Origin: Candidatus Poribacteria bacterium
GTDB lineage: Bacteria > Poribacteria > WGA-4E > WGA-3G
Assembly: GCA_965215265.1 (NCBI GenBank)
Contig: OZ244048.1
Coordinates: 544,001 to 608,000 of the forward strand
DNA length: 64,000 bases
Reading direction: 5' to 3'
The notes beneath the pieces are model-generated. The model was not told the origin of the DNA. It saw only the letters and a program-made list of their open reading frames with translations, and did no database searches. Position numbers and translations under genes: made by a program. This document shows, one piece after another, positions 10,195-41,774 of the stretch. How positions within the stretch are numbered: the stretch's first letter is position 1; the number at the start of each line of letters is the position of its first letter.

Positions 10195-10373
10195 TTGGCA
10201 AGATAAGGTTATCTTTGTCTCTCCTTGTAGGAGAGACAAGTGGCGAGATAGGTATTCTTTCTCTGTCCTTCAGGACAGAGAAGAAAGGGAATTCCTCCCC
10301 GCTTGCGGGGAGAACTTCCCTTCCCTTTTACTCGCCACCCACTGGGAATACCGAACTTGCCAACCCACTAGGG
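10195..10373 (+). repeat. Triple-nested palindromic repeat stack (A within A, C innermost)
   Basis: Outer TTGGCAAG..CTTGCCAA-CCCACTAGGG; inner GTGGCGAG..CTCGCCAC-CCACTGGG (10240-10346); innermost GGAATTCCTCCCCGCTTGCGGGGAGAACTTCC. Confidence 0.8.
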
Positions 10374-10382
10374 AGTTTTTTT

Positions 10383-11204
10383 ATGCAGTATCGCACACTC
10401 GGCAAAACAGGGTTCACAGTCTCAGAAATCGGATACGGTGGTGGAAGAGTTCGCCCGGAACACGATGAAACTGAACTGGTTAAGATGCTCCATCACGCGT
10501 TAGGGAACGGCTTGAACTTCCTTGATACCGCGCCCACCTATGGCGGCGGCTACAGTGAAACGATTATAGGGAAGGCGATTGCCGGACAACGTGATGATTG
10601 TATCGTTGCTACCAAAACGGAGGCATTCGAGCCGGAAGGCATCGTTGCAGATGTAGAAGGCAGCTTAAAACGGCTTAATACGGATTACATTGATGTGTTG
10701 CAATTCCACGGCGGTTGGTTCTATGCAAAGGAGACGCAACAGATTCTGGATGGCGGTGGGTTAGAAACCTATCTGAAACTGAAAGAACAAGGAAAAGTAC
10801 TCTGCATAGGGTTTTCAGCGGACGGTCCCTCCGGCGGTGTAGAACAACTTATTGCCACGGGTGAATTTGACATGATGCAGATACATTACAATCTGATGTA
10901 CCAGAGCACTTGTGACGCATTTGGCAACCGTGGCGTTATCCCCGATGCTGCTGCACAAGAGATGGGCATCGTGCTGATGCGCTCCACAACCAGCAACGCC
11001 TTCCAAAACCTCATACAGCACTGCTTTCCAACCGAGATGGCGGATGCCGACATAGATCGGTTTCTGCTCAACTATTCACTCTCTAACCCGCTGGTGGACG
11101 TTGCACTGATGAGTCTACAAAGCGTTGCCGACGTGGAATGGACAACAGCTGTTTCTAACGATGTCGCTGCGAGACTGGATCTGCGCGCAATTCATGGACG
11201 CTAA
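10383..11204 (+). CDS. Aldo/keto reductase
   Basis: MQYRTLGKTG..GLNFLDTAPTYG..SLKRLNTDYID; the upstream extension from 10215 is repeat-derived. Confidence 0.9.
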   Translation: MQYRTLGKTGFTVSEIGYGGGRVRPEHDETELVKMLHHALGNGLNFLDTAPTYGGGYSETIIGKAIAGQRDDCIVATKTEAFEPEGIVADVEGSLKRLNTDYIDVLQFHGGWFYAKETQQILDGGGLETYLKLKEQGKVLCIGFSADGPSGGVEQLIATGEFDMMQIHYNLMYQSTCDAFGNRGVIPDAAAQEMGIVLMRSTTSNAFQNLIQHCFPTEMADADIDRFLLNYSLSNPLVDVALMSLQSVADVEWTTAVSNDVAARLDLRAIHGR

Positions 11205-11221
11205 ATTTTTGTATTTTTGTA

Positions 11222-11459
11222 TTTTTGTATTTTTCAGCCCCGTCAAGGGTTATGTATTGTTAAATCCGATGTACATCTCGTCGGAGACACCTTCGGTTTT
11301 GACTTTAAAGACGATACCTAAGCAGGCTCTGGCGAGATTTGTAAGGGTTTTAATATAGCAGCAATTGGCATTGGGCTTCTGAGGCGGTACCCAGACCGGA
11401 CTTTAACCGTAGAGTTTTAATATAGCAGCAATTGGCATTGGGCTCCTATATACAAAAAG
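11222..11459. mobile_element. Family B MITE containing a 31-bp direct duplication
   Basis: Left end TTTTTGTATTTTTCAGCCC and right end GGGCTCCTATATACAAAAAG; internal ATCTCGTCGGAG..CTCTGGCGAGAT; TTTTTGTA tandem x3 at 11206-11229. Confidence 0.7.
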
Positions 11460-11489
11460 CCTTTTCCTGCCGCTCTGTGTGTGTCGCCC

Positions 11490-14186
11490 TTACGAAGCTG
11501 CCAAAAAATTCCGGATGACGTAATCCAAAATCCCTCCATGTTTGTAGTACTCCACTTCTACAGGAGAGTCAATTCTGACACGTAATTCGGTCTTGTGCGT
11601 GTCACCGTTAGCTCTGACGATGTTCAGGTTTGCTGTTTGCCCTGGCTGAAGGTTTTCAGCGAATCCGGTAATACTGATAATTTCGCTGCCGTCTAGGTTG
11701 AGGGTTTGCGCGTTTTCATCCGGTTTAAACTGCAAGGGTAAAATGCCCATTCCAATGAGGTTCGTTCGGTGAATGCGTTCGTAACTCTCCACGACGACGG
11801 CTTTAATTCCAAGGAGTTTGGGTCCTTTGGCTGCCCAATCCCGGGAGCTCCCCATCCCGTAATCCTTGCCAGCAAAGATTACGGTTGGCACGCCATTTTC
11901 ACGGTAGTTAAGCGCTGCTTCATAGATAGTGGTTTCGGTCTCTTCGGGATATTGCACGGTGAATCCACCTTCCACATCCGGTCTCATGAGGTTTCGGACA
12001 CGCCTGTTGGCAAAAGTGCCCCGGCTCATCACCCTGTCGTTTCCACGTCTGGCACCGTAGGTATTGAAATCAAGAGGTTCAACGCCGCGTTCTTGGAGAT
12101 AGTGTCCTGCCGGGCTCGCTGCAGCGATTGCCCCTGCTGGTGAAATATGGTCTGTCGTGACAGAGTCTCCAAAGATGCCAAGGATACGGGCATTAACAAC
12201 ATCCGAAATAAGTTCAGGTTCACGTGTAAACCCTTCAAAAAATGGCGGATGCTGCACGTAGGTGCTTTTTTCGTTCCATGGGTAGAGAACGCCGCTGGCA
12301 CCTGAAAGTTCTTCCCACTCTGGTGCCTGCTTTCCAATCTGCTCATACATCTCTCGGAATGTCTTCCTATTGACAGATGCACGAATCATGTCCGCGATGT
12401 CGTGGCGAGACGGCCAGATATCCCGTAGATAGACAGCCTCACCCGCGTCATTGTGTCCGAGTGGTTCCTGCGTGAGATCTATATCAATTCTGCCTGCGAG
12501 TCCATACGCCACAACGAGAGGTGGTGACATCAGAAAATTCGCTTTTACCTCAGGATGCACGCGTGCCTCAAAATTCCTGTTGCCGCTCAGTACACTCGCA
12601 GTCACGAGGTTCCGGGCATCAATCGCCTCCTGAACGATTTCGTTGAGCGGTCCGCTGTTTCCAATGCAGGTTGTACACCCGTAGCCGACAACGTTGTATC
12701 CCAGTTTTTCCATGTAGGGTAACAATCCTGTGTTCTGCAGATACTCCGTTACAACACGAGAGCCTGGTGCCAAACTGGTTTTAACATAATCAGGAACGCG
12801 TAATCCTTTCTCCACTGCTTTCTTAGCGAGTAGTCCCGCACCAATCATGACGGAGGGATTGCTGGTGTTAGTACAGCTAGTAATAGCGGAAATAGCAACC
12901 GTGCCGTGCCGGAGTCCATCAAGCTGCGCTGATGCAGTCATCCCAAACCCGTCTTCAGCGGTTGGGCGTGTCAGGAGTTCTGTGAACTTTGCTTTAACGG
13001 CAGAGAGTGCTATCCGGTCTTGGGGACGTTTTGGGCCAGCGACACTCGGTTCAATGTCACTGAGTTCAATTTCCAAAATGTCGGAGTAGTTGATTTCTCC
13101 AAGTCGTGGAATGCCAAAGAGTCCTTGTGTTTTGAGATATGCCTCTACGAGTTCAACCTGTATGTCGTCGCGTCCGGTGAGACGTAGATATCTGATTGTT
13201 TCGGCATCTGTAGGGAAGAATCCAATTGTTGCGCCGTATTCAGGACACATATTGGAGAGTGTTGCCCGGTCGGGCAGTGAAAGTGCATCTACACCGGGAC
13301 CGAAGAACTCAACGAACTTATCTACGACTCCAGTTGCTCTGAGACGTTCCGTTACTGTCAATACCAAATCGGTTGCCGTTACGCCTTCTTGCAGTGCCCC
13401 TTTCATGTGAACACCCAGGACTTCCGGAGTCAGAATGTAAACCGGCTGTCCTAACATTGCAGCTTCCGCTTCGATGCCGCCAACACCCCAGCCGACGATG
13501 CCGAGTCCATTAATCATGGTTGTGTGTGAATCTGTCCCGACGACGGTATCCGGATAGGCTAGGCCCTCTTCTGACATGACGACTTGGGCAAGGTATTCCA
13601 AATTTACCTGATGAACTATACCGATAGAAGGTGGAATGATATTGAATTTTTCAAACGCCTGCTGCCCCCATTTTAAAAATTCGTACCGTTCTTTGTTGCG
13701 TGCAAATTCGCGGCGAGTGTTGAACTGAAAAGCGTTCTCTGTCCCGTATGAATCTACTTGTATTGAATGATCTATAACTAGATCTACAGGAACAAGCGGT
13801 TCTATCAGACTCGCATCGCCACCGAGCGCAGCAACAGCAGAACGCATCGCGGCGATATCAACCACGAGCGGCACCCCTGTAAAATCTTGTGCAACGACTC
13901 GGGCAGGTTTAAACGGTATCTCGGCAGCCTTCGGCGAACGTGCATCCCAATTTGCCAAATTTACGATGTCTTGTTCGGTGATATGGTGTCTGTCACAATT
14001 CCGCAATAAGGACTCAAGCAGGATGCGGATGCTGACAGGCAAGGTATTTATTGAACCGATACCGGCCGCTGCAAGCGCCGGAATGGAATAGTAGTTGTAA
14101 TTGAGTCCTCTGTTTTCAAGAACTCGACATGTATTGAATGCATCGATGGCACACTGCGCGTCATTTTGAGATGATTGAGGCATCAT
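11490..14186 (-). CDS. acnA: Aconitate hydratase A
   Basis: QDFTGVP, GTDSHT, TSCTNTSNP, GCTTCIGNSG and GSSRDWAAKG motifs. Confidence 0.97.
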   Translation of the reverse strand: MMPQSSQNDAQCAIDAFNTCRVLENRGLNYNYYSIPALAAAGIGSINTLPVSIRILLESLLRNCDRHHITEQDIVNLANWDARSPKAAEIPFKPARVVAQDFTGVPLVVDIAAMRSAVAALGGDASLIEPLVPVDLVIDHSIQVDSYGTENAFQFNTRREFARNKERYEFLKWGQQAFEKFNIIPPSIGIVHQVNLEYLAQVVMSEEGLAYPDTVVGTDSHTTMINGLGIVGWGVGGIEAEAAMLGQPVYILTPEVLGVHMKGALQEGVTATDLVLTVTERLRATGVVDKFVEFFGPGVDALSLPDRATLSNMCPEYGATIGFFPTDAETIRYLRLTGRDDIQVELVEAYLKTQGLFGIPRLGEINYSDILEIELSDIEPSVAGPKRPQDRIALSAVKAKFTELLTRPTAEDGFGMTASAQLDGLRHGTVAISAITSCTNTSNPSVMIGAGLLAKKAVEKGLRVPDYVKTSLAPGSRVVTEYLQNTGLLPYMEKLGYNVVGYGCTTCIGNSGPLNEIVQEAIDARNLVTASVLSGNRNFEARVHPEVKANFLMSPPLVVAYGLAGRIDIDLTQEPLGHNDAGEAVYLRDIWPSRHDIADMIRASVNRKTFREMYEQIGKQAPEWEELSGASGVLYPWNEKSTYVQHPPFFEGFTREPELISDVVNARILGIFGDSVTTDHISPAGAIAAASPAGHYLQERGVEPLDFNTYGARRGNDRVMSRGTFANRRVRNLMRPDVEGGFTVQYPEETETTIYEAALNYRENGVPTVIFAGKDYGMGSSRDWAAKGPKLLGIKAVVVESYERIHRTNLIGMGILPLQFKPDENAQTLNLDGSEIISITGFAENLQPGQTANLNIVRANGDTHKTELRVRIDSPVEVEYYKHGGILDYVIRNFLAAS

Positions 14187-14213
14187 TCTCTCCTTCCTAT
14201 GGTCGGCAGTAGT

Positions 14214-16892
14214 TCATTCGGAACTATTTTTTCGTTGTAGGCTCGCGATGTCATCAAGCTGCTGGCGAGCATAGACAGTGATAACGTTTTCCGGGTAATT
14301 TGTAATCAACGTGGTATAAGCGGAAATCGCCTTCTCGAAATCGGCGAGCCGCTGGTAAATTTCGGCGAGAGTTATCAAGGCTTTCGCCGCATGTGGGCTC
14401 TCCATTGCGGTAACCTGTTCGTAAGCACCTATCGCCTCAGTATCTTTGTGATTTTCACGATAGATATCACCAAGGAGGAGCCATATATCGTCGCGGATTA
14501 GGGCTTGTGGGTGCGCTTCAAGAATCTGTTGGCACTGCTGTACGGCGGCATCCTTTTGTCCACTCAAATGGAGCTGCACCGCAGTTGCATAGTTTGTGAG
14601 TGGAATTTTGAGATAATCAGGATGATCTTGGATGAGGACAATCTGTTCGAGGGCATCATTCGTTATCTTGTCGGATTTTGAGACGAGGATAACCTTTTTG
14701 TATTCTTCCAATGCTTTTTCAAAGTTGGCAGCAAAGAAATAAGAATCGCCCAGCTGTTTACGGGCGATTGCCCGAAATGCGTTAGGACTGGCGGCGATGC
14801 GAACAAGGATTTCTTGAGCGAGGTTGTATCGTTTCAATAGGAGGTGGCATTCGGCTAGGCCCACCTCCACTTCTTGGCGTTGGCTGGCGGATAAACGGCG
14901 AGTGAGTAACCTTTGGAATGTCATGTGGGCAGCTTTCGGTGCTCGCAAGCCTTGCAATTGCATTTGGCCGAGTTGCATTTGGGTTTCAATAGCATCACTA
15001 CTCGGCAGGATTGCATTCTCTTCGCCGGTTAAGAGTTCAACGGCTTCGCCCCATTTCTCCTTTTTCTGATAAAACGTTGTTAAATTGCGCTTCGCATTCC
15101 GGGCACGTGTTTCGTGCGTGGCAATTTGCATCAGAGTTTTATAGAAGTCTATCGATGCCGGGTGTTCGCTTCGCGCCAAGACTGTCGCGTACCTGTCAAG
15201 AGTTATCTCAGTGTACGACGGATAATTCTCATAGAGTTGTAGAAACCTTTCAAGGGCTTTCTGAGGCTGTCCATCATGAAACAAGAGTTCTGCTAAGGTT
15301 AAGGTGAGGTTTGCATTCCGGGGTTGAAACAAGAGTGCTTTTTCAATGTCGCCAATAAGTTTTGCCATCACTGGATTTTGCGATGCGTTATCGGCAGGTA
15401 AGGTATTCTTGTCTCTCCTTTCAGTCCTTACCTGATTACCTTTTCCTGCCGACCTCTGGTTGGATGTTTTCTCTCTATTGCTTACGGGTGGTAAAACAGG
15501 GGGCTCATAGATGTCCTGCATAGCAAACAAAATCGCGTCCCGTTGGTTATGGACCATGCCGACATTTTGTAGCCCTTCTACGTACACCCTTGCTGCGTCT
15601 GAAAGAAGCCCTTGGATTTTGTACGCGGCTGCTAATTGTATGTAGAGATAGCCGTTTTGAGGTTCTAGGCGGATGGCTTGTCGATACGCCGCTATCGCTT
15701 CTGGGTACATTTTGTGCGAAAGGTAGATGCCACCCAGTTGCTCCTGCCGGTCTGCGTGTGCTGGTTCACTGTTTACCAATTTTTCCCATTCGGCGGCGGC
15801 TTTTTGCATTTTGCCAAGTTTTGCGTAAAGTTCGCCCAATTTTCTGCGAAGGTTTGTATTCGCACTATTTTGTTTGAGCGCGTTCTGATAAAGTGCCAAT
15901 GCCTTAGAATGCGCGCCTTGACGTTGATAGAGTTCCGCTAATTTCTCCAAAAACGTGCTATCGTTCGGATTCGCTTCCATGCGCGCTCTAATCAATTTTT
16001 CTGCTGCTGTATAGTGTTTGTTTTCTGTATAGAGACTAATGAGACTCTTAATCGCACTAGAACGATAAGGCGAATTTGGAAAAGTTTCAAGGAAATAGCG
16101 ATATGACTCCACGGCTTCCGCGTATTTGTTCTGTGCTTCCTCGTATTGTGCGATAAGATAGGCAGCAGTGGAGGCGACACTCGTGCCGGAGTGCTGTTTC
16201 AGAATCTCCTTGCATTGTGAAACAGCCTCATTGAATTGATAACGCTGCCAATATAGGTTGGCAAGCCTATGCACTGCCTGTGTCGCGTAAGAACCATTGG
16301 GGTTTTCGTCAATTATCTCTTTAAAGACACGTCGGGCATCAGCATCTTCCCCACGTTTCACATAACTCTGTCCTAACCTGAGTCGAATGTTATCCTTTTC
16401 GCTCTGTTCAAGGGGTGTTTCTAACAACGCTTGATATGCTTGAATGGCTTCTGCATATCTCCGCTCATAATAATGATCGTGCGCGTTTTCAATTGTATTT
16501 AAGACTTGATGTCTTTCGCCAACGTTGACTTGAGCAACGGCTGAGGATAGAGTGCTCTGCCCACTAACAAAGAGGGTGATAGTAGAGAGGGCAATGAGTG
16601 GCAGGATAGGCAATGGGAGCCACCTACATGCCTTTCGACATCTCGGCAGGTAAGGGATGGTGCCCACCCACCCAATTCCTTTCTTTCTCTGTCCTGAAGG
16701 ACAGACAAGATTACCTTTTACTCGCCACCCACTGGGATTACCTTTTACCTGCCACCTATAGGTTCTTGTCTCTGGCACTGCCGACTCTGGCAGTGCCAGT
16801 GAATAGATTACCTGACCCCGCACCTTTTCCTGCCGACCTTTGGTGCATGTCACGGTGGTTGTGCGTGACAAAAAAGCGAGTAGTTTTTGCAT
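14214..16892 (-). CDS. Exported TPR repeat protein with two repeat-derived in-frame insertions
   Basis: Many TPR/BamD-like repeats; likely start MQKLL at 16892 with GGAG RBS. Confidence 0.85.
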   Translation of the reverse strand: MQKLLAFLSRTTTVTCTKGRQEKVRGQVIYSLALPESAVPETRTYRWQVKGNPSGWRVKGNLVCPSGQRKKGIGWVGTIPYLPRCRKACRWLPLPILPLIALSTITLFVSGQSTLSSAVAQVNVGERHQVLNTIENAHDHYYERRYAEAIQAYQALLETPLEQSEKDNIRLRLGQSYVKRGEDADARRVFKEIIDENPNGSYATQAVHRLANLYWQRYQFNEAVSQCKEILKQHSGTSVASTAAYLIAQYEEAQNKYAEAVESYRYFLETFPNSPYRSSAIKSLISLYTENKHYTAAEKLIRARMEANPNDSTFLEKLAELYQRQGAHSKALALYQNALKQNSANTNLRRKLGELYAKLGKMQKAAAEWEKLVNSEPAHADRQEQLGGIYLSHKMYPEAIAAYRQAIRLEPQNGYLYIQLAAAYKIQGLLSDAARVYVEGLQNVGMVHNQRDAILFAMQDIYEPPVLPPVSNREKTSNQRSAGKGNQVRTERRDKNTLPADNASQNPVMAKLIGDIEKALLFQPRNANLTLTLAELLFHDGQPQKALERFLQLYENYPSYTEITLDRYATVLARSEHPASIDFYKTLMQIATHETRARNAKRNLTTFYQKKEKWGEAVELLTGEENAILPSSDAIETQMQLGQMQLQGLRAPKAAHMTFQRLLTRRLSASQRQEVEVGLAECHLLLKRYNLAQEILVRIAASPNAFRAIARKQLGDSYFFAANFEKALEEYKKVILVSKSDKITNDALEQIVLIQDHPDYLKIPLTNYATAVQLHLSGQKDAAVQQCQQILEAHPQALIRDDIWLLLGDIYRENHKDTEAIGAYEQVTAMESPHAAKALITLAEIYQRLADFEKAISAYTTLITNYPENVITVYARQQLDDIASLQRKNSSE
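15391..15459 (+). repeat. Family A palindromic element, in-frame inside the TPR gene
   Basis: TCGGCAGGTAAGGTATTCTT..ATTACCTTTTCCTGCCGA-CCTCTGG. Confidence 0.75.
16599..16844 (+). repeat. Nested A/D repeat stack, in-frame inside the signal peptide of the TPR gene
   Basis: Two A left ends, three A right ends and one D unit; 246 bp with no stop codon on the coding strand. Confidence 0.75.
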
Positions 16893-17000
16893 TTCGTTCT
16901 CCAGAATAATTTGAGAGAAGTACCCGACAAAATTACCGGAACTATCTCCCAATGGGTCAAGTGTCTGAGTTTTTGATGTTGTTCCCTATTGACGGATAAG

Positions 17001-17066
17001 GTGGCAGAATAGGTATTCTTTCTCTGTCCATGAGAGAAGATTACCTTTTACCTGCCACCCATTGGG
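17001..17066 (+). repeat. Intergenic family A palindromic element
   Basis: GTGGCAGAATAGGTATTCTTTCTCT..AGAGAAGATTACCTTTTACCTGCCAC-CCATTGGG. Confidence 0.8.
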
Positions 17067-17098
17067 TATTGACAGGCTCAGGTCAATACGAAGTTTTT

Positions 17099-20000
17099 TT
17101 ATGTTTGAGTTTCGAGCTGTTGGTTGAGCGCTTCAATGGCGCGTTGTACCGCCTGTGCGTTTAACGTGTCTGTTGTCGATGTTTCGGTATAGATATGTGC
17201 AGCAGTAGAAAAGAGCAGCAAGCTCTCGGAAAATTTTTGTTCGGCACGGTACAACCGTCCGAATTGATAGAGCGAATCTGCAATCTCGCGTAGTTGTCCG
17301 GTGTTGTAGCGTATCTGCAGGCTTTCGGTATAGTATTGTCGTGCTTCAGCAAGTTTTCCTTGCCGCAGTGCGATTTTCCCAAGGCTATCCAGCAAATACG
17401 CGATGCCGTTTATGGCAGGACTCGCCACCCACTGGGTTGCATCTGACAATTCACGAGCAAGGTTCAGGCTCTCTGTATAATAGCCGGCTGCTGTTGTATC
17501 ATCGCCTTGCCGGTACGCAATTAAGCCCAGGTGGCTTAATGAATAAGAGACCCCCTGATTGTCCCCGAGCTCTCTCTGAAGATTGAGGCTTTCCTTGTGA
17601 TAGCTAGCCGCTTCAGTGTATCTCTCTTGACGATATGCAAGCAGTCCGAGGTGGTTCAGTGAGGTAGCAATGCCGCGTTTATCTGCCAGTTCTCTCCGAA
17701 TTTCTAAGCTTTCCTCATGGTAGCGTTTTGCTTCGTCTCGTAATCCTTGCTGGTTTGCAGTTTTCCCCAAATTGTTGAGAGAATAAGCGATACCGCGTTT
17801 ATCCCGGAGCTCGCGAGCCAGGTGTAAACTTTCCGCGTACAGTCCCTTCGCTTCTTCAAAACGACGATGGTGATATGCTGTGAGGCCCAAGTTGTCTAGG
17901 GCATAAGCGATTAACCATTTATCTTCCAATGCTTTTGCAAGCTGGAGGCTCTCCGTAAAATAGGCATCCGCTTTTTCATGCTGCTCTTGATAACGGGCGA
18001 TAATTCCGAGTTGGTTTAATGCCTTGACGATGCCTTGTTGATGGCCTGTGATTCTGAAAATCTGGAGTCCTTCCTCACACACTTGCCGTGCAGTTTCGCA
18101 ATTCTGTTGGGTATTATAGAATTTCGCCAACGATATGAGGACATTCGCTAGTAGTTCGCGTCTGATTCCGTCTTTCAATTCGCATTTCCGCAAGGCAGTT
18201 TCTGCAGCTCGAAGCCATTTAATGCCTTCGCCCCACAAACCACGGATATAGAAAAACTGTGTGAGTGCAGCTGCAAGTTGGCTGAAGACGTACCACTCGC
18301 CTTGTTCCATGCTAAATGTTAAAGCGGCGCGAAAATTATCTAGTTCAATTGCCATTTCGGCAAGCGCTGTACTCTGTTCTGCCCCTTTTAGTTTCTTGTC
18401 TTCTTCCTGTGCTAAGTTGAGATAATAATTGGCGTGCATTCGTCTAAAGTCTGTGGTGTCTTTCTGTTTTTCACGCATGTATATTTGTAAAGGGACAGAG
18501 AGACGGTAGCGCGTTCGAGTTAAATGCTTTTCCTGAATGAGCAGCGATTTATCGTGTAAACTGAAAATCAGATCAAGTGTCTTATCGGTATTTTCACTAC
18601 AGATAACTTCGGCGGCTTCTAAGAAAAAACCACCTGAAAAGAGAGCTAGCTGCCCTAGCATGTCCTGTTCTTCAACATTTAAAAGTTGGTACGACCAGGA
18701 TATCACAGCACTGAGTGTTTGATGCCGTGCAGGCACATCACGGTGCGGTGTGCAAAGGAATCCGAGTTGTGTTGACAATCGTTTGAGGATGTGTTGCGGT
18801 GTCATGCTGCGGACCCGTGCTGCAGCAAGTTCGATTGCGAGGGAGAGTCCATCAAGTGAACGGCAGACCTCTGCAACAGCCTCAGCATTCTCGAGGGTTA
18901 ATTTAAAATTCGGTGAGACAGCCTTCGCTCGCGCTAAAAAGAGTTGAACACTCTCAGATTTTTCATACATTGGCAGAGTGTCTCTGGACAACGCAAATTC
19001 CGCTGGCGGGACAGATAACGGCGGTACAACGAACGTTTGTTCCCCGGAAATTTGCAGCCACTCCCGTGAAGTTGCCAAGCAGTGCAATTTAGGACACCTG
19101 CGCAGAAGGGTGTTCACATATACGGCACCTCCAATCAGATGTTCAAAGTTATCTAGGACCAGCAGCAGTTCTTTTTCTGCAAGGTATGTGACAACCTGCT
19201 CCATTATATTCGTCACGGTGTCCAACGTTTTTATATCATCTGGCTCCGATCCGATGGTTATTTTGCTATCAGATTTTTGAGGCAATCTCAATGAAATAGA
19301 GAGGGCAGTTGCTAACTCTGTGACGAGATGCTCAGGCTGAACCAGATCTGCTAAGGGAATGAACCACACACCGTCTGGATATTTATCTAGTAATTCTGAT
19401 GCAACGTAGAGCGCGAGGCGGGTTTTGCCGATGCCGCCGGGGCCAGTCAAGGTGACAAGGCGACTCTCTGCTCTCGTAAACAAGTGTGTGATGCTTTGAA
19501 CCTCGGTTTCTCTTCCGATAAAACTGTTCACCGATACCGGCAAATTGTTCGGGAATCTATCAACGGTTCGCAGCGGTGGAAATTCGTTCTTGTAAGGAAC
19601 GTGCAATTGGAAAATTCGTTCCCGACGCTGGAGATTTTTTAGGCGATGCTCCCCGACATCCTGGAAACTTCCATTTGGAAATTGTGATTTGACGAGTTCG
19701 TGCGTTGCTGCAGATAGCAAAATCTGTCCGCCGTGTCCAGCATCCGTAATCCGTTTTGTGAGGTTCGCAGGCATTCCTTGATATTCATTATCAAGTAACA
19801 GCAAATCACCGGTATGAATTCCGATCCGAATCTTCACTTTGTCTACGGGTTCGGGCCAGTCGTATGCCTCGAAGGCTAACTGTGCTTCAAGGGCGCACGC
19901 GACAGCATTTCTTGCTGTAGAAAACAAAAAAGCAAATGCATCCCCTTCACTGCTAAGTTCTTGCCCACTCCATTTGGTGCTTGCTTCCCGTAATATCGCG

Positions 20001-20179
20001 TTGTGCGAGGCTATGACAGCTGCCATAATTGTGTCTTGATGTTGCTCCCACAGCAATGTAGAACCTTCAATATCCGTAAACATCAAGGTAACAGTACCTC
20101 TTGAAATATGTGCGGTTGCATTGCTTTCTGATTTGGGATCTGGAACTTGCACGGCTGCTAACTGACTCTGTTGTGCCAT
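17099..20179 (-). CDS. Class III adenylate/guanylate cyclase + STAND (NB-ARC-like) ATPase + TPR protein
   Basis: FTDIEGST, EGDAF and RIGIHTG cyclase motifs; Walker A GPGGIGKT; Walker B LLVLDNFE; C-terminal ~40-aa TPR repeats. Confidence 0.92.
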   Translation of the reverse strand: MAQQSQLAAVQVPDPKSESNATAHISRGTVTLMFTDIEGSTLLWEQHQDTIMAAVIASHNAILREASTKWSGQELSSEGDAFAFLFSTARNAVACALEAQLAFEAYDWPEPVDKVKIRIGIHTGDLLLLDNEYQGMPANLTKRITDAGHGGQILLSAATHELVKSQFPNGSFQDVGEHRLKNLQRRERIFQLHVPYKNEFPPLRTVDRFPNNLPVSVNSFIGRETEVQSITHLFTRAESRLVTLTGPGGIGKTRLALYVASELLDKYPDGVWFIPLADLVQPEHLVTELATALSISLRLPQKSDSKITIGSEPDDIKTLDTVTNIMEQVVTYLAEKELLLVLDNFEHLIGGAVYVNTLLRRCPKLHCLATSREWLQISGEQTFVVPPLSVPPAEFALSRDTLPMYEKSESVQLFLARAKAVSPNFKLTLENAEAVAEVCRSLDGLSLAIELAAARVRSMTPQHILKRLSTQLGFLCTPHRDVPARHQTLSAVISWSYQLLNVEEQDMLGQLALFSGGFFLEAAEVICSENTDKTLDLIFSLHDKSLLIQEKHLTRTRYRLSVPLQIYMREKQKDTTDFRRMHANYYLNLAQEEDKKLKGAEQSTALAEMAIELDNFRAALTFSMEQGEWYVFSQLAAALTQFFYIRGLWGEGIKWLRAAETALRKCELKDGIRRELLANVLISLAKFYNTQQNCETARQVCEEGLQIFRITGHQQGIVKALNQLGIIARYQEQHEKADAYFTESLQLAKALEDKWLIAYALDNLGLTAYHHRRFEEAKGLYAESLHLARELRDKRGIAYSLNNLGKTANQQGLRDEAKRYHEESLEIRRELADKRGIATSLNHLGLLAYRQERYTEAASYHKESLNLQRELGDNQGVSYSLSHLGLIAYRQGDDTTAAGYYTESLNLARELSDATQWVASPAINGIAYLLDSLGKIALRQGKLAEARQYYTESLQIRYNTGQLREIADSLYQFGRLYRAEQKFSESLLLFSTAAHIYTETSTTDTLNAQAVQRAIEALNQQLETQT
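17413..17436 (+). repeat. Minimal internally deleted family A element, in-frame in a TPR repeat
   Basis: TGGCAGGA-CTCGCCA-CCCACTGGG; encodes TQWVASPA, which is absent from neighbouring TPR repeats. Confidence 0.7.
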
Positions 20180-20212
20180 GGTTTCAATTTGTTGTCGTAG
20201 ATATTAGATTTG

Positions 20213-20467
20213 CTATTGACACTGCTTTGGAGACACACGGTTCCTGATTGTACGTGACACCCGCCCACCCAAATCCTTCGCGAGAGTCATAAGTGTAAGT
20301 TGACTGATGTGCAGCAGCGAAGCTCGCAAGAAGGGACTCGTTCCAAGAGGGTGTCCGGATTGCGTATGCCACACCGATTTTTGTAAAGTCCGAACAGTGC
20401 TGCCAAGTTGGACGGATGCCTTCATAATGTTTTTCGCATGGCACTGTTCAAAAATGAGTTCTTTCAT
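20213..20467 (-). CDS. Small hypothetical protein, contains a family D unit at 20255-20278
   Basis: AAAGGA RBS; fills the gap between co-oriented genes; no recognisable domain. Confidence 0.35.
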   Translation of the reverse strand: MKELIFEQCHAKNIMKASVQLGSTVRTLQKSVWHTQSGHPLGTSPFLRASLLHISQLTLMTLAKDLGGRVSRTIRNRVSPKQCQ

Positions 20468-20476
20468 TTATTCCTT

Positions 20477-22189
20477 TCAATCCTTTTCCTGCCCGAAGGG
20501 AAGTTCTCCTCGCTCGCGGGAGGAATCCCCATCGCTCTGGTTAGTAAAATTAAGGTGCCGTCTCAGAATGCTCTGATGTCCCTGCTCGTTTTCGAGCCGG
20601 TAAATCACCGTATAAATGCCAGGAACCGTTTGGAACGCTGAAGAGTCAAGCCTGGGTGTGAATTCAAACTGGGTTGAGTCATTTTGTGGAATGGCCCGAT
20701 GTTCTGTGAATGGCCCGTAGCACCTTTCACCGAGAGGGTTAAGGACTTTCCAAGTTAGTGTCAACCGTTTCGGGTGCGGCGGGTTGTTAAAATACACCGT
20801 GATGTTATCGCCGACGCTGCCACTCCCGACACGCAGCGTGCCTAATTGAGAAAACATCTTTTCTGTCAAGGGTAACGGTGGAATGTATTCAAGGTAACCT
20901 TTGCCAGGGATAACGCGCCAAGTGCCGCCTGTTGCCATCGCAATTTGTTTAATAGGTAGATAATCGAGCCCAATAACGTCAACCCGAATCTCCTGGCGTT
21001 GTAGGGTTTCAATCACGGTGTCTAAGCTATATGGCGATCTGCCGTTGTAGTCTGCATCGTGAAACGCTGCATCGCTGGCAAGCACAAACAACCGTTGTGC
21101 ACCCTGCCGGAACTTGCTATGTGTCATCGCTGCCATTAACGCGTCCAATCCGGCTTCTGACAGATCTCCGCCGCCATCCGTTCCTATTTCAAACAGCCAG
21201 TTTCTAAAGGTCCCCGAGTCATCGGTGCGTTTATATGTTCTTATTTCATCGCTAAACACAACCAACCCAAAGGTTGCATCGTGCCCATCCAATCTTAGGG
21301 CATCAAAAAGAAAATGCACATAAGCCCGGATGCCACGGATATTGTCTACCATGCTCGCTGTCTCATCAAGAATAAAGACAACGTCGATTTTTTCAGCCGT
21401 TGCAGCACGGGCGAGTTCGTGCGCGAGCGCCTTCATCATAGAAACGTATCTTCCTCCAACATTCGCAGCCCCCGACGTGCTACCACCGCCCCGGGTGTTG
21501 CCCATACCCGTTGCTCCGAGCGCGTCCCCCCGTCTCCCGCCATAATAAACATTCGGTGTATCCACCGTTGGCGAAACTACGCTGAGTCCTTCCGCTCTGC
21601 CTAAAGTTATTTGGAAGTCCGCCCCTTGTGGCTCCCACCCGCCCAACTCCTCTGTCCTCGAGGACAGAGAAAGAAAGGGGATTCCTCCCCGCTTGCGGGG
21701 GAAGGGAAGTTCTCCCCGCTTGCGGGTTGGTAAGTTTGGATTCCGATTCTTGCTAACCGACGGAACCTGAGAAACCTTTCCCACAGAAACTTTGCGAACC
21801 CGACCTGTTGGCCCCATATTCTCATCGTGATTTTCTGTGAACCAACTTGTGTTGGAGCTGGGTTGCGGTTTTGACAGTTCGGGTACCGCCTCCGTAACAG
21901 AAGTTACAGCGGGTTCAACCGATTTCGGCGGTTCAACAATAATCGGTTCTGGCTCCCGCCCACCCGAATCCTTAGTCGGCTTAATGGAGTCTATCCATAT
22001 TTCTTGTCCATTAAAAAACGGTGCTTGTAATTCAGACTTTGGTGCGAACTGCCAAAGCACTGACATCAGGATGAGGTGAATGAGCAATGAGTATATCAGA
22101 TATGGGGTTTTTCGAGTTTTCATGAGAATTTTCCAGGATATTTCGTTTTCTGGCTCCCACCCGCCCAAATCCTTCTTTCGAGTTTTCAT
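20477..22189 (-). CDS. Membrane-anchored vWA domain protein with several repeat-derived insertions
   Basis: N-terminal TM segment (SLLIHLIL); MIDAS-like DETASM; GGGDLSE; start at 22189 or 22123 because the start region is duplicated. Confidence 0.85.
   Translation of the reverse strand: MKTRKKDLGGWEPENEISWKILMKTRKTPYLIYSLLIHLILMSVLWQFAPKSELQAPFFNGQEIWIDSIKPTKDSGGREPEPIIVEPPKSVEPAVTSVTEAVPELSKPQPSSNTSWFTENHDENMGPTGRVRKVSVGKVSQVPSVSKNRNPNLPTRKRGELPFPRKRGGIPFLSLSSRTEELGGWEPQGADFQITLGRAEGLSVVSPTVDTPNVYYGGRRGDALGATGMGNTRGGGSTSGAANVGGRYVSMMKALAHELARAATAEKIDVVFILDETASMVDNIRGIRAYVHFLFDALRLDGHDATFGLVVFSDEIRTYKRTDDSGTFRNWLFEIGTDGGGDLSEAGLDALMAAMTHSKFRQGAQRLFVLASDAAFHDADYNGRSPYSLDTVIETLQRQEIRVDVIGLDYLPIKQIAMATGGTWRVIPGKGYLEYIPPLPLTEKMFSQLGTLRVGSGSVGDNITVYFNNPPHPKRLTLTWKVLNPLGERCYGPFTEHRAIPQNDSTQFEFTPRLDSSAFQTVPGIYTVIYRLENEQGHQSILRRHLNFTNQSDGDSSRERGELPFGQEKD
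21629..21726 (+). repeat. Composite D + A-core + C repeat, in-frame in the vWA gene
   Basis: GGCTCCCACCCGCCCAACTCC, TCTGTCCTCGAGGACAGA and two CTCCCCGCTTGCGGG hairpins, matching units at 10240-10346. Confidence 0.75.
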
Positions 22190-22216
22190 GAGAATTTTCC
22201 AGGATATTTCGTTTTC
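22110..22216. repeat. 41-bp direct duplication flanking a family D unit
   Basis: TTTCGAGTTTTCATGAGAATTTTCCAGGATATTTCGTTTTC at 22110-22150 and 22176-22216. Confidence 0.9.
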
Positions 22217-22236
22217 CGGCACATCTATAATACGTT

Positions 22237-23190
22237 CTACAGATGAAATTCCACCACATCACCATCATAAACTACATCGTCGCGGCTGACAGATTGCCCG
22301 GCGTGCCATTGCGGTCCCCATATCCTTGCGAATTTGAATCCAGCAAAATCTTTATGTAAGCCGATGGCAGCATCTTGCACTGTTGCACCAATTGGGAGAA
22401 CGATCGGATGCTCATGCTCTAGCGGTTTTCCGGGGGCTTTTGGATAGATTCGGATAATGTTCAAGGCGTTATACATTGCTTGAAAGAGAGAATCGCTGCC
22501 GGCACCTGTTAGAGTAGAAATCGGGAGGAGTTGCTCCCCATAAAATTCCGTAAGAATTTCCAATCTATCTGCTGCACCGTCAGCATCCTGCTGGTTTGCT
22601 ACAACGAGGTGCGTCCTGTCCGTATCGGTTATAATGATGTCAGCCTCATGCAGTACTGTGAGTACCATGTCCAAATCATCCAACAGATTATCGGATGCAA
22701 GACTAAGCACAATAACCCGCAAATCCGCATGTCGAGCAAGCGTTAACACTGTTGGAGAAACAAAGTCAGGCATGATAGAAGGCGTATCGATGAGTTGAAA
22801 TTGAACATTTTGATAACGGAGCATCCCAACCGTCGGTGTTGTTGTGATATAAGGTGTCGGACCCACTTCCGGTTTTGCTTTGGTAAAAGTGGCAAGCATC
22901 TCTGATTTACCGCCATTCGGCGGACCGAGGAGTACAATTTGACCAGCGCCTTGTTTCGGAATATGCTCGCTATACCCTTTTCTGCCTCCTTTTTTGCTGC
23001 TGGATGCCGAAACGTCTCTTTTGAGTCTAGCGATGCGCTTCCGTAAATCGGATACTACTTTCTCTGAGCCTTTATGCTGGGGAACGATACGCAACATCTC
23101 CTCTAACAGCTCAAGCTGCTCAGAGTCCGTTTTTGCTGCTTCATGTTGATGCTTCAATTTATAGTAAGTTGGGGGTAGATTCGCTGGCAT
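22237..23190 (-). CDS. DRG/Obg-family GTP-binding protein with C-terminal TGS domain
   Basis: MPANLPP N-terminus; P-loop GPPNGGKS; TGS end DGDVVEFHL. Confidence 0.88.
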   Translation of the reverse strand: MPANLPPTYYKLKHQHEAAKTDSEQLELLEEMLRIVPQHKGSEKVVSDLRKRIARLKRDVSASSSKKGGRKGYSEHIPKQGAGQIVLLGPPNGGKSEMLATFTKAKPEVGPTPYITTTPTVGMLRYQNVQFQLIDTPSIMPDFVSPTVLTLARHADLRVIVLSLASDNLLDDLDMVLTVLHEADIIITDTDRTHLVVANQQDADGAADRLEILTEFYGEQLLPISTLTGAGSDSLFQAMYNALNIIRIYPKAPGKPLEHEHPIVLPIGATVQDAAIGLHKDFAGFKFARIWGPQWHAGQSVSRDDVVYDGDVVEFHL

Positions 23191-34622: not shown

Positions 34623-35036
34623 TTAGAGTGACAATTCATTGCCTTGCTGCGAAGAATCGGCTCGAAAACTGTAATAGCCGAGGAATGCGATGTCCCGCAG
34701 CCCACGGAACAGGAGGCGGCACACCCGGAAGCGGCTCCCCGCCCAGGTTTCGATGTAGTGCACGGCATCACGCGCGGAAAGCTGTGTAAAACGGCGCGGT
34801 TTTCCAATAAACAGAAGTGGACACCATTCAAAAACTTGTAGCCCGGAACGGAGTTGCGTTTGCAACGGTTTGGGCAGCCGCGACACGAAGGTGTCAATTG
34901 CAAGAAGCGGTTCATCTAATGCGGTGTCAGTAGGAATGCCAACCATATAGATAAACACAGATTTGAGGATGCAGCGTTCCGCTTGCGTGAAGAACGTTTT
35001 ATCATTTAACGCTGTTTTGAGCATCGTCTTGTTCAC
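34623..35036 (-). CDS. Hypothetical protein, gluconate-2-dehydrogenase subunit 3-like
   Basis: RRFTQLS..W..S..R..FRGLR..LGYY pattern. Confidence 0.55.
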   Translation of the reverse strand: MNKTMLKTALNDKTFFTQAERCILKSVFIYMVGIPTDTALDEPLLAIDTFVSRLPKPLQTQLRSGLQVFEWCPLLFIGKPRRFTQLSARDAVHYIETWAGSRFRVCRLLFRGLRDIAFLGYYSFRADSSQQGNELSL

Positions 35037-36587: not shown

Positions 36588-36643
36588 ATCTCATCGGATT
36601 AAAACACGGTTTATCGCTTAGATCGACAAAAAACTCTATTTCT

Positions 36644-39807: not shown

Positions 39808-39894
39808 TCCTTTTGTGCGGAATCATCAAGTAACTCAGATAAAGGTATAGGCCCAAAAATCTCTGCCGGGTTACGCCACGGGGCGTTTCTGCCA

Positions 39895-40464
39895 CTATTT
39901 CTTTCCGGCTGTTAGTTTGAGTCGCATCGCTGCTTTGTAAGCGTCTACTGCCTCCCGTCGCTTCCCTTGAAACGTGTAAACCGCTGCTAGTTCAGAGTGC
40001 AACTCGGCGTTCTGAGGCATAAACTGGATCGCGCGCGTATAAACATCAACAGCTTCATCGTAGCGTTTCAGTAGTCGATACGTAGCAGCGAGGTTGAGAT
40101 GTACCATTACTTCACTCGGTTCACACGCAATCGCCATTTTGTAAGCATCTATGGCACTTTCATAGGCACCCAGCATAAAACGTGCTAATCCGAGATGAAA
40201 GTGTGCCTCTGCTGATTCATAGTTGTGTTGAAGGGCGGCTTTAAATTCTTCGATCGCCTTTGTATACTCCCTTGCGTTTAATGCATCCGCGCCCTGTTTC
40301 AAGTGCTTTGATACTGTCTGATGAATGTGAAGAGCTACGTATCCACGATGGATGTGTGCTTCTTGCTTCCGTTTTTCGGATACTGTCGGTTCGCCTTGCG
40401 TTCTTGCAACAGTAGTCGTCTGTGAACTGTGCCCTGAGTTTTGATTCTGATTTTCTTTTGACAT
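39895..40464 (-). CDS. TPR protein
   Basis: About four TPR repeats. Confidence 0.85.
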   Translation of the reverse strand: MSKENQNQNSGHSSQTTTVARTQGEPTVSEKRKQEAHIHRGYVALHIHQTVSKHLKQGADALNAREYTKAIEEFKAALQHNYESAEAHFHLGLARFMLGAYESAIDAYKMAIACEPSEVMVHLNLAATYRLLKRYDEAVDVYTRAIQFMPQNAELHSELAAVYTFQGKRREAVDAYKAAMRLKLTAGKK

Positions 40465-40488
40465 TTTTCACAAAGGTTTTAAAAATTG

Positions 40489-41391
40489 CTACGGGTATGC
40501 AACACGGAATCCGATGACGAATTCAGCGTATCCCGTGCTAAAAAAATCGTAACTGGTGCAGGTACTATAGTCGTGGTTGTAGTACCAGGCACCGCCGCAA
40601 GCCACCCGAAATTGCTCCTTATCATCATAAGGGGTGCCTGTCCATTCCCAGACATTGCCGAGCATGTCGTAGCAGCCGAAGGGACTGATACCGTCAGGAA
40701 ACGCGCCAACAGGAGTCGTCCCCCCGGCTCCAAGTTCTGCCGTGTTGCACCGCGGTTTGTCAATTTCATTGCCCCATGGAAACAGTCTATCATCATTCCC
40801 ACGTGCGGCGTACTGCCACTCTGGAAACGTGGGTAATCTACCACCGGCATAACGGGAATACATTTCCGCATTTTCGCATGTCACCCAAACAACCGGATGG
40901 TCACCCTTATTCTCCGGGTAGCTCCCATTAATCCAATCTGGAGGTGGTTCACTGCCAGTGTCCTGAACGAACTGATAGTAGTGCGCGTTCGTCACCGGAT
41001 AGACACTCATCTCAAATTTGTCAATCTCCAAAGGTGCACATTCTTCACCAATGCGTGCTGTTCCGCTAGGAATACGAACGGTTGCAGTTAGCACCTTCAG
41101 TGCTGCATTGCGAACCTGTTTATCCGGATGCCCAAGTGCGTAACCGAGCGGTGAGATAATTTCCCCAACCGGTGGCGTTGTCAAAATTGGCCTCTTCTCC
41201 CAACCGAGTTCCATGCTTAACAGTAGAAGCACCGCATCAGATAGCGATTCCTCAAAGTGCCACAACCAATAATCAGAGAGTAGTTGCTGCAACGCTTCTG
41301 TATCACCACGTTCAGTACGCGCAAGGCGGGATGCCTTTGCCTTTGAGATATTGAGAATATTTTGGCTTGGAATGTTATTCAAAACTGCCAT
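40489..41391 (-). CDS. FGE-sulfatase (SUMF1/EgtB/PvdO) domain protein
   Basis: PVTNAHY, RLPTFPEWQYAARG, DMLGNVWEW and GFRV motifs. Confidence 0.9.
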   Translation of the reverse strand: MAVLNNIPSQNILNISKAKASRLARTERGDTEALQQLLSDYWLWHFEESLSDAVLLLLSMELGWEKRPILTTPPVGEIISPLGYALGHPDKQVRNAALKVLTATVRIPSGTARIGEECAPLEIDKFEMSVYPVTNAHYYQFVQDTGSEPPPDWINGSYPENKGDHPVVWVTCENAEMYSRYAGGRLPTFPEWQYAARGNDDRLFPWGNEIDKPRCNTAELGAGGTTPVGAFPDGISPFGCYDMLGNVWEWTGTPYDDKEQFRVACGGAWYYNHDYSTCTSYDFFSTGYAEFVIGFRVAYP

Positions 41392-41443
41392 TTTATTATA
41401 TTATATCATAAAAAAAGAATTTTGTGCAAGGTATTTTTCTATT

Positions 41444-41774
41444 GTCACTTACCCCTTTTTTTTGAGAGTAGTCTGTGTGTGATATTGTTAGGTTTATCTG
41501 TGAGAAAAGTGGCAGGATAAGTATTCTTTATTTCTCCTTTCAGGAGAGATAAGATTACCTTTTAACTGCCACCCACTAGGCAGTGCTGTTGTGCCAACTC
41601 AGAATGGTTTTTTCAAAACGAGATTTCTAAATCCGAAGCCACTCTTTATATCTCGGAAGCCTTGTTCAATCTGCATGCGTCTGAGGTATTTTATCATAAA
41701 CCCACTGCTTTCCTCACGCTTTTCCAAACAAAAACCTTTCACCACAAACCTTCAAAAAAAATGGGGTTAGTGAC
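41444..41774. mobile_element. Family E MITE with a nested family A element
   Basis: TIRs GTCACTTACCCCTTTTTTTTGA / TCAAAAAAAATGGGGTTAGTGAC; halves are similar to 3518-3615 and 6313-6445. Confidence 0.82.
41509..41579 (+). repeat. Family A palindromic element (71 bp) inserted into MITE E
   Basis: GTGGCAG..CTGCCAC-CCACTAG; absent from the homologous site at 3579-3591. Confidence 0.85.

Follow-up and report, generated by a model that had tools for sequence, protein, structure and literature searches.

Genes and Palindromic Elements in the Window

The window, that is, the whole stretch of DNA analysed, comprises 64,000 nt (positions 544,001–608,000 of the forward strand) of contig OZ244048.1 from assembly GCA_965215265.1. 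The source is a Candidatus Poribacteria bacterium, a sponge symbiont, whose genome is a single contig of 4.83 Mb and is 95% complete. Three minus-strand genes act as hosts of the elements described below: host gene 1 (14214–16952), encoding a conserved secreted TPR protein of 892 aa from an ATG at 16892; host gene 2 (17099–20179), encoding an adenylate/guanylate cyclase with an NB-ARC-type ATPase and TPR; and host gene 3 (20477–22222), encoding a membrane-anchored vWA-domain protein. All element coordinates refer to the plus strand.

A first-pass annotation of this DNA had proposed three families of short palindromic elements, A, C and D, and every copy that it placed was recovered by means of profile search, motif census and alignments. 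The family A profile matched at 10190–10239, 10238–10350, 15392–15469, 16591–16764, 16996–17071 and 41503–41592, and the copy at 17413–17439, skipped by the profile, was revealed by repeated 13-mers and ortholog alignments. Family C was found at 10282–10325, 20495–20534 and 21672–21726, and its census added a family C-type hairpin at 53488–53525 that was absent from the first list. The family D motif was located at 16658, 20255, 21629, 21950 and 22151. It is not the independent 24-nt unit previously supposed, and corresponds to one arm of another palindromic element type.

Copies located between long ORFs are those at 10195–10380, 17001, 20255 and 41509. The first is a three-layer nest between two genes (10190–10380; sequence, profile matches and family C census), in which the outer family A unit, with stems TTGGCAAG/CTTGCCAA, is split by an inner unit (10240–10350; stems GTGGCGAG/CTCGCCAC, tail CCCACTGGG) that in turn carries the family C hairpin at 10282–10325. 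The single-strand DNA fold of 10240–10350 has an energy of −29.6 kcal/mol (z −6.3). Canonical family A units lie between two genes at 17001–17066 (profile match, fold z −4.8) and 41509–41579 (profile match, fold), and a D-type arm fragment occupies the spacer between two genes at 20255–20279 (motif match). A short transposase remnant adjoining yet another repeat family was seen near 41509; no full copy of it was found.

Within host gene 1, a family A unit with stems TCGGCAGG/CCTGCCGA was identified at 15391–15464 (profile match, orthologs); its minus-strand reading corresponds to about 24 extra residues, and the segment is missing from 11/11 orthologs. A scrambled composite at 16599–16844 (sequence, translation, ortholog comparison), combines at least two left ends and three right ends, the latter carrying tails, with a single D arm. 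Read in the TPR frame it contains no stop, and it separates the start-codon region from the core of the signal peptide. The orthologs lack this composite, which forms part of the 892-aa protein in the public gene call; the 119 other homologs among the 120 matches listed have 728–817 aa.

In host gene 2, the collapsed family A unit at 17413–17439 (ortholog alignment) consists of a left stem fused to a right stem and tail, with a net gain of 24 nt or about eight residues (...TQWVASPA...) missing from four orthologs. A structure model placed this insert in an inter-helix loop (fragment residues 136–141), with pLDDT <50 at 138–141.

In host gene 3, a family C hairpin at 20495–20534 (family C census) replaces the stop region and yields a 21-residue C-terminal extension, five orthologs ending before the hairpin. 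An in-frame composite at 21629–21726 in the vWA linker joins a D arm with a small hairpin, a family C hairpin and part of a second C; since the linker is about as long as that of vWA orthologs, native sequence seems to have been replaced by this composite. Another D arm fragment lies in frame in the same linker at 21950–21973 (...KDSGGRE...; motif, orthologs). At 22110–22220 (sequence, ortholog comparison), a D arm (22151–22174) is accompanied by a 45-nt direct duplication, whose copies at 22110–22154 and 22176–22220 repeat the start-codon region of the vWA gene, and by a GGC microhomology. The claim that copies within ORFs leave the frame open holds at 15391, 16599–16844, 17413, 20495, 21629–21726 and 21950; the copy at 22151 lies 5′ of the conserved start of the vWA gene (22123, minus strand).

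Anatomy and Genome-Wide Census

The family A unit (about 65–73 nt) is a long imperfect hairpin followed by a 9-nt palindromic tail. It extends from the T of TGGCAGG through the hairpin to the end of the tail (CCCAYTGGG or TCTATAGAT); the 5′ end is paired within the terminal stem and the tail is the unpaired end motif. Most copies are complete units with identical exact ends, tail included. Single-strand DNA folds of four window copies, one of them folded on both strands, gave z values of −3.7 to −6.3 against shuffles (five folds). Compensatory changes in the stems, already noted in the first pass, proved real: among 107 distinct copies 90.3% of the terminal stem cells are paired, whereas shuffling gives 84.7% on average and 86.1% at most. 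For one column pair of the stem, A-T is seen in 70 copies and G-C in 21; for one pair of the inner hairpin, G-C is seen in 47, C-G in 15, T-A in 13 and A-T in 11. Chimeric mismatched stems also occur, such as GTGGCAGG with CTCGCCAC in two copies.

A scan of the genome, suggested together with the original description, showed that the units are not confined to the window. Profile search detected 198 merged family A loci (18,128 bp in total), the census gave 60 family C loci, and the family D motif had 54 matches at ≤5 mismatches (none in the reversed-genome control), one of which, at genome position 4056001, is no copy but a conserved coding motif of native origin. In 400 kb of this genome 277 short-repeat loci were counted, versus 52 in 400 kb of a genome of the same genus. 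Orientation is balanced (about 89 plus and 85 minus). The strand bias expected of single-strand transposition is not visible in this genome, whose skew in GC is too slight to delimit replication arms.

Insertion and Nesting

The nesting of units in each other was borne out and occurs at defined sites: excision of 19/98 anchored copies re-joins another family A unit, and the clean nest sites read ...hairpin-ACAAG^ATTACC or the mirror site on the other strand. Mobility, in the sense of precise insertion, was likewise supported by alignment of six filled loci with paralogous sites that are empty. Three of the six (genome positions 1251779, 1084559 and 258675) have clean junctions with one or two ambiguous bases each and zero duplication, and two of them lie in another repeat family, both at its site CGACG^AGATTT. 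A fourth (genome position 4548991) is interpretable and consistent with these three. Target duplication is absent among 94 anchored copies, in which flanking 4-mers or 5-mers match in ≤3.2% (3) at any offset (shuffled maxima 2.1% and 1.1%, respectively). The target preference is moderate and varies between subfamilies; AAAG is the 5′ flank of 38/552 loose anchors (6.9%, background 0.5%), and 62/94 copies have A at position −2 relative to TGGC.

Host repair or replication might have spread the copies without any transposase, by template switching at stalled forks or breaks into other hairpin repeats, leaving patches that are whole units or fragments, at times with flanking DNA lost or duplicated. 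The lack of a recognisable transposase agrees with such a route, as do the occurrence of D arms and of the collapsed 24-nt unit as fragments on their own, the chimeric stems, the apparent replacement of the native vWA linker with no net lengthening, the 45-nt flanking duplication with its GGC microhomology, and the ambiguity of 1–2 nt at the clean sites. Against it stand the completeness of most copies, whose exact ends, tail included, are identical, the recurrent insertion at the same positions of other repeats under one orientation rule, and the 5′ AAAG preference. The 45-nt flanking duplication is unique among the 312 units examined, and fragments can also arise through later deletion within hairpins. 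Template switching is considered an unlikely origin of the copies as a whole. The isolated arms, the chimeric stems, the apparent linker replacement and the 45-nt duplication would each be explained by repair or template switching no less than by transposition.

Copies Inside Genes

Comparison of five host genes with their orthologs confirmed that peptide-coding sequence has been added to conserved, otherwise intact genes: the element-coded peptides are present in this genome alone and the frames are open. Among the coding copies, both orientations and several frames are represented.

Family A lies at least 80 codons deep in ORFs at 10/198 loci, as compared with 48.2% of 5000 random positions; the corresponding figures are 6/60 loci for family C and 6/54 for family D. 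A random genic insertion keeps the frame open with a chance of 0.12, and the number of coding copies is about half of that expected under random insertion with loss of frame-breaking copies. Coding copies are therefore depleted, and no more numerous than random insertion and purifying selection predict. The idea that the elements serve as a source of new protein sequence gains nothing from these figures, which do not suggest adaptation, and lengths divisible by three, put forward as a check on coding copies, are not enriched in the full unit set (26/98).

The genic copies could also go untranslated, either removed from the mRNA like small introns or carried in dead host genes. A 246-nt composite in the signal-peptide region should harm export if translated, a consideration in favour of this reading that is not direct support. 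The frames are open through every checked copy, and the host ORFs, the longest reaching 2300 codons, are still intact and conserved. Removal at the RNA level would moreover lift the need for open frames, yet frame-breaking copies have been purged (10/198 versus 48%), and no intron-type RNA family was matched in the window. That the genic copies escape translation is very improbable. Among the sequencing runs listed for window positions 14200–22300, none was of RNA; four DNA runs of one study contain 96–99% of the sampled words.

Distribution and Search for a Mobilising Enzyme

Family A was not found as units in 30 relatives, of which three gave short weak matches, and the same-genus genome gave 0 matches. 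A 19-mer of the element had one chance-like match in public genome contigs and three in metagenome contigs, none of them a full unit, and no closer strains were found in metagenome contigs with the vWA protein as query. Among the titles and abstract openings listed for the Poribacteria literature, none concerned such repeats; related families may be contained in the repeat tables of PMC3733652.

These data bear on the possibility that the repeats are kept as structured RNA or DNA signals (3′-end stabilisers, terminators or protein-binding sites), as proposed for REPs, with genic copies as by-products. Stable hairpins, covarying stems and the location of most copies between genes are what such a role would lead one to expect. 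Since family A was not found in 30 relatives, the same genus included, no conserved function depends on it; the outer hairpins are broken up by nesting, Rfam has 0 matches in the window, and gene starts are not enriched 3′ of the tail (7/98 versus 10/98 on the other side). A signalling role would also leave the spread of copies unexplained, and it is held to be quite improbable. The same counts of gene starts led to rejection of the tail and a downstream GGAGG as a supplied ribosome-binding site.

The RAYT/TnpA-Y1 or reverse transcriptase partner envisaged in the first-pass annotation was not recovered. Y1_Tnp (PF01797) has 0 matches in the genome, in a search whose control was positive in 6/14 genomes; Y1 genes occur in 25/30 relatives, and the same-genus genome has 34 matches. 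The sole reverse transcriptase belongs to a DGR-like locus away from the repeats and was discarded as a partner. The genome likewise has 0 matches to OrfB_IS605 (TnpB) and DEDD_Tnp_IS110. Y2_Tnp (IS91-type) also gave 0 matches, a result that says little, the control genomes being silent too. DDE_Tnp_1 (PF01609) is represented by weak fragments only, and the single tyrosine-recombinase match contains a stop codon. An autonomous element with family A ends was sought among 14 long-range end pairs and rejected: the six compared enclose unrelated ordinary genes, four being spaced about 3.15–3.2 kb with housekeeping genes inside and two about 2.7–2.8 kb. Derivation from the IS200/IS605-type element of the same-genus genome was also rejected, its ends being unlike family A (nhmmer E = 2.9).

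Proposed Explanation

We favour, with a probability of about 0.7, the explanation that families A, C and D are related families of small non-autonomous selfish hairpin elements that multiplied in one Poribacteria lineage. A family A unit inserted whole, in one orientation and without target duplication. The preferred sites lie just 3′ of an AAG-type sequence or at fixed points at the base of the hairpins of other repeats, and insertion at such hairpin feet gives rise to the nests. The process may be a single-strand, hairpin-guided cut-and-paste or copy-and-paste of the HUH/Y1 kind. Its enzyme is presumably no longer encoded in the genome, and the present copies are therefore probably immobile. 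Insertion into genes would be undirected, frame-breaking copies being removed by selection, and the survivors would be copies that keep the frame, contain no stop and in many cases have collapsed internally. They sit in loops, linkers, leaders and termini and are presumably translated into neutral or mildly harmful passenger peptides.

It is unlikely that the units instead form an unrecognised class of hairpin elements without target duplication, moved by an enzyme family new to transposition or solely by the host's processing of single-strand DNA. If they did, modules following the hairpin-foot insertion rule could assemble into mosaics of growing size and, now and then, into new segments of protein, all this within a genome that lacks Y1, TnpB and IS110 and has weak DDE (PF01609) fragments only.

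Comparison with Known Systems

IS200/IS605 elements insert without target duplication, 3′ of a short specific sequence and in one orientation, and have hairpin ends. The units described here, taken as selfish hairpin elements, agree with them in all these points and likewise follow no classical double-strand inverted-end logic; Y1 transposases are common in the clade (25/30 relatives). They differ in that no Y1 or TnpB is resident, the family A ends are unlike those of the IS of the relative, and one long hairpin spans the whole unit instead of separate left-end and right-end hairpins.

The bacterial interspersed mosaic elements (BIMEs) of enterobacteria are intergenic mosaics of a few hairpin modules in varying combinations. 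The present elements are also mosaics of a few hairpin modules, but units insert into units at defined sites and modules lie inside genes as well. DDE MITEs such as Correia/NEMIS resemble them in small size, terminal inverted stems, high copy number and in-frame fusions with host ORFs, as far as the accessible part of PMC10969869 describes these; family A in contrast lacks a target-site duplication and a parent IS with the same ends, and its long-range end pairs enclose ordinary unrelated genes.

REPs, according to the accessible part of PMC3733652 (Di Nocera et al. 2013), are short imperfect palindromes of high copy number, often species-specific and mostly intergenic, defined by a stem-loop of 20–40 nt, one end of which bears GTAG or CGTC as an unpaired tag; CGTC-type REPs have no dedicated transposase, and some intragenic REP units encode 20–30 residues. 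Family A shares with REPs and REPINs the short imperfect palindromes, high copy number, mostly intergenic location and unpaired end motif beside the stem. It differs in having no GTAG or CGTC unpaired tag and a length (65–73 nt) outside the 20–40 nt range. Its hairpin has roughly double the length and contains an asymmetric internal region that is conserved, and a palindrome of 9 nt takes the place of the 3-nt CCA. No RAYT gene is present in this genome. REPIN units are mostly inverted (head-to-head) dimers; in family A, nests were counted for 19/98 anchored copies.

The Rickettsia palindromic elements (RPEs), in the part of PMC10969869 available, measure about 150 bp, lie in ORFs in nearly half of the cases, and have many copies in frame in unrelated genes at fold-compatible positions; RPE-4 and RPE-6 fall into the CGTC repeat class, for which no dedicated transposase was found by the authors of PMC3733652. 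As with RPEs, several palindromic families are present in one lineage, and palindromic inserts lie in frame in unrelated conserved genes, to which they add peptide-coding sequence. This likeness is one of description, and the phylum is another. The units here are also shorter (about 65–73 nt), genic copies are a depleted minority (10/198), and fixed-site nesting and the 9-nt palindromic tail are prominent.

The claim of an undescribed repeat system thus stands in part: no description was found in Rfam or in the Poribacteria literature as covered above, but the kind is already known (REP, RPE or MITE-like). The families are undescribed members of this known kind of selfish DNA, and their novelty had been overstated, in-frame palindromic repeats being known from Rickettsia RPEs and intragenic REPs (PMC10969869, PMC3733652, as far as accessible). 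No new principle is established, and the case is unusual mainly in that no candidate moving enzyme was found. It offers a clean natural experiment in a single-contig genome that has no Y1, hundreds of hairpin units and exact filled and empty sites, in contrast to a same-genus genome with 34 Y1-transposase matches and few small repeats. It is thereby a good setting in which to study how REP- or RPE-like elements without known transposase spread, a question open for CGTC-type REPs in the accessible part of PMC3733652, and it provides, on the scale of a fifth of a percent, a sponge-symbiont example of selfish DNA giving loop, linker and terminal segments to conserved proteins.

Distribution and Structure of the Repeat Families

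The genome carrying the window, which spans its bases 544001–608000, is a single contig of 4,833,177 bases. A search of it with an iterated nucleotide profile gave 418 strand-wise matches to family A, a hairpin unit of about 65–73 nt, which merged into 198 loci covering 18,128 bp over the whole chromosome. Family C, a 44-nt hairpin, was found at 60 loci, and the family D motif had 54 matches at five mismatches or fewer compared with none in the reversed genome; one of the 54 is a native conserved coding motif. A copy was present at every position where the first-pass annotation had placed a member of these families, and all three (198, 60 and 54) proved to be genome-wide, whereas confinement to the window would have counted against that annotation's reading. 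Family D had been listed as a free 24-nt unit, but the contexts of its copies identify it as an arm belonging to another type of palindromic element. All repeated words (k = 13, at least six copies) took in 2,990 loci and 284,672 bp, a total that includes multi-copy genes; an acidic low-complexity stretch, the GAT/GAC/GAG codon run at window 61710–61839, also surfaces among them.

The anatomy of family A was read from 109 aligned copies that were simple and of full length, 107 of them distinct, and comprises, from 5′ to 3′, a terminal stem, an arm, an inner hairpin, the 3′ stem and a tail. The terminal stem (7–8 bp) occurs in the subfamilies GTGGCAGG/CCTGCCAC, GTGGCGAG/CTCGCCAC, GTTGCGAG/CTCGCAAC, TTGGCAGG/CCTGCCAA, TCGGCAGG/CCTGCCGA and TGGCGGGG/CCCCGCCA. 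The arm, ATAGGTATTCTT … AAGATTACCTTTTA with variants, is conserved and incompletely complementary, and the inner hairpin is one of several alternatives. An unpaired tail of 9 nt follows the 3′ stem and, as CCCAYTGGG, TCTATAGAT or CCTATAGG, forms a small palindrome of its own. Single-strand DNA folds of the copies in the window gave z-scores of −3.7 to −6.3. In the terminal stem 90.3% of the cells were paired, compared with 84.7% on average and 86.1% at most after shuffling, and two-sided changes were seen, so that the compensatory changes noticed earlier are real. One pair of the inner hairpin was G-C in 47 copies, C-G in 15, T-A in 13 and A-T in 11. Chimeric stems were also found.

When a 76-nt family A copy was used as the query, it matched 40 places in its own genome but had no match in the same-genus genome, one of the 30 relatives compared; only short weak matches were obtained, in three of the 30. 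A family A 19-mer gave one chance-like match among species genomes and three among metagenome contigs, with no full unit in either of these collections, which may omit the window's own genome. Short-repeat loci numbered 277 in 400 kb of the window's genome versus 52 in 400 kb of the same-genus genome, the latter being mostly an IS. This burst limited to one lineage is a notable feature of the elements.

Insertion Sites and Nesting

At 94 anchored family A copies no flanking direct repeats were found above the shuffled control. Since many copies lie inside members of other repeat families, empty paralogous sites exist, and six filled loci were aligned to such sites. Three of the six alignments had clean junctions, with only 1–2 ambiguous bases and without duplication, and a fourth was interpretable and consistent with them. 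Two of the three clean insertions shared the landing position CGACG^AGATTT of another repeat. According to these junctions, family A extends from the T (or G) of (G)TGGCAGG to the tail end.

Excision of the family A copy restored another family A unit in 19 of 98 anchored copies. Clean nests were located at ACAAG^ATTACC, directly after the inner hairpin, or at the mirrored position of the opposite strand, and family C within family A lay near the same place. AAAG was the 5′ flank of 6.9% of 552 loose anchors, compared with 0.5% in the background. The re-joined units, clean junctions, recurrent site and AAAG preference together show that in a nest one unit has genuinely inserted into another, following a rule of site and orientation, and it is the exactness of this duplication-free process that deserves attention.

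A longer repeat of about 170–240 nt, with arms of AAATCTCGTCGGAG/CTCCGACGAGATTT type, has dozens of genomic copies (for instance genome 4548900–4549160 against 4231994–4232238) and is a frequent family A landing site; TGGCGAGAT is common to its arm and one family A stem type.

Search for a Mobilising Enzyme

A RAYT/TnpA-Y1 or reverse transcriptase gene flanked by the units had been proposed as a partner. Searches of the genome gave no match to Y1_Tnp/RAYT, OrfB_IS605 or DEDD_Tnp_IS110; Y2_Tnp also gave none, but its control was likewise silent. DDE_Tnp_1 was represented by weak fragments only. A single Phage_integrase-family match (genome 4117565–4118038) was interrupted by a TGA stop codon, and no XerC/XerD-type recombinase was found in the genome at the threshold of that search, which is unusual for a bacterium. 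The sole reverse transcriptase (354 aa, locus 1418596–1422237) is preceded by a gene with a sulfatase-modifying-factor-like C-terminus and a 118-aa helical protein, and by eye this locus has the layout of a diversity-generating retroelement. Neither proposed partner was thus recovered. An autonomous element bounded by family A ends was rejected as well, since long-range end pairs enclose ordinary, unrelated genes.

Y1 genes were present in 25 of the 30 relatives, and the same-genus genome had 34 Y1_Tnp matches; that a genome with such a sister should itself hold no recognisable mobilising enzyme is noteworthy. The same-genus genome contains (for example at its locus L074) several copies of a 1.7–1.9 kb IS200/IS605-type element, encoding a TnpA of 143 aa and a second ORF of 401 aa, with none in the window's genome. 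Derivation of family A from this element was discarded, its ends being unlike family A. Family A orientation was balanced and GC skew was uninformative.

Taken with this absence of a recognisable enzyme, the insertion features suggest that family A spread by a single-strand, hairpin-guided mechanism, the enzyme of which would have been lost or would not be recognisable. Origin of the units through repair or template switching is considered unlikely, and would fit the fragments of units, the chimeric stems and a unique 45-nt direct duplication on both sides of a D arm (window 22110–22220). The two copies of this duplication, 98% identical at a spacing of 66, repeat the part of the vWA gene around its start codon, the sole such case among 312 units.

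Another repeat of about 80 nt (window 41684–41766 and 6355–6431; roughly 20 genomic copies) adjoins, in the window, a short remnant resembling, by eye, the C-terminal end of a transposase, of which the searches made found no full copy. A 1043-aa protein (window 41850–44981, minus strand) carries Type ISP coupler, N6 methylase and Type ISP C-terminal specificity domains; it has five genomic copies with DNA identity of 78–100%, the others being at genome 660959–664073, 2053162–2056318, 2500524–2503687 and 3764300–3767415.

Copies within Genes

In the TPR gene (window 14214–16952, minus strand) the match to the query was broken around residues 487–520 in all 30 relatives, and the 11 aligned orthologs lacked both this segment and roughly 80–90 extra N-terminal residues; the public call is 892 aa, and of 120 homologs listed all others (119) have 728–817 aa. 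Where a source is given for these homologs, it is Candidatus Poribacteria bacterium. In the cyclase/NB-ARC/TPR gene (17099–20179, minus strand) left stem, right stem and tail make up a net 24-nt insert, missing in four orthologs, which in the predicted model (mean pLDDT 91.4) lengthens an inter-helix loop. Family C would encode a 21-residue C-terminal extension of the vWA gene product (20477–22222, minus strand). The variable linker of this gene, no longer than in orthologs, holds a D arm as well as a D-hairpin-C composite, and another D arm lies immediately upstream of the conserved start. The same pattern was seen in two genes that lie elsewhere in the genome, beyond the window.

Copies at least 80 codons inside an ORF (deep copies) were rare: 10 of 198 family A loci, compared with 48.2% of random positions. 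Family C had 6 such copies among its 60 loci, and family D 6 among 54. Enrichment for lengths divisible by three, suggested as a check on coding copies, did not appear among family A units overall (26 of 98). A unit has on average 2.5 of six frames open, and the chance of keeping the frame after random genic insertion is 0.12; if every frame-breaker were then lost, about 0.11 deep genic copies would be expected for each other copy, against an observed 10 to 188, or 0.05. Coding copies used differing frames and orientations. On these grounds the predicted element-coded peptides are survivors of selection, not designed output. The proposal that the units supply protein sequence holds as far as predicted coding inserts absent from orthologs are concerned, and nothing points to adaptation to that role.

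Comparison with Known Repeats

The original observation was thus confirmed, and its interpretation stands for mobile, structured, undescribed repeat families, though not for a RAYT or reverse transcriptase partner or for peptides as anything other than survivors of selection. Rfam gave no matches within the window, and none of the titles and abstract openings listed in literature searches on Poribacteria concerned repeats of this sort. MITEs make in-frame fusions, and such fusions are highly frequent for Rickettsia RPEs (PMC10969869); REPs are sorted by unpaired GTAG or CGTC tags, some intragenic ones encoding 20–30 residues; two RPE families are equated there with CGTC REPs, a class for which no dedicated transposase was found (PMC3733652). 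As far as these accounts describe them, GTAG/CGTC REPs behave much like family A, but family A carries neither tag, has about double the length and differs in its tail, and therefore falls outside both. The elements make up families that are undescribed, though of a kind already known.
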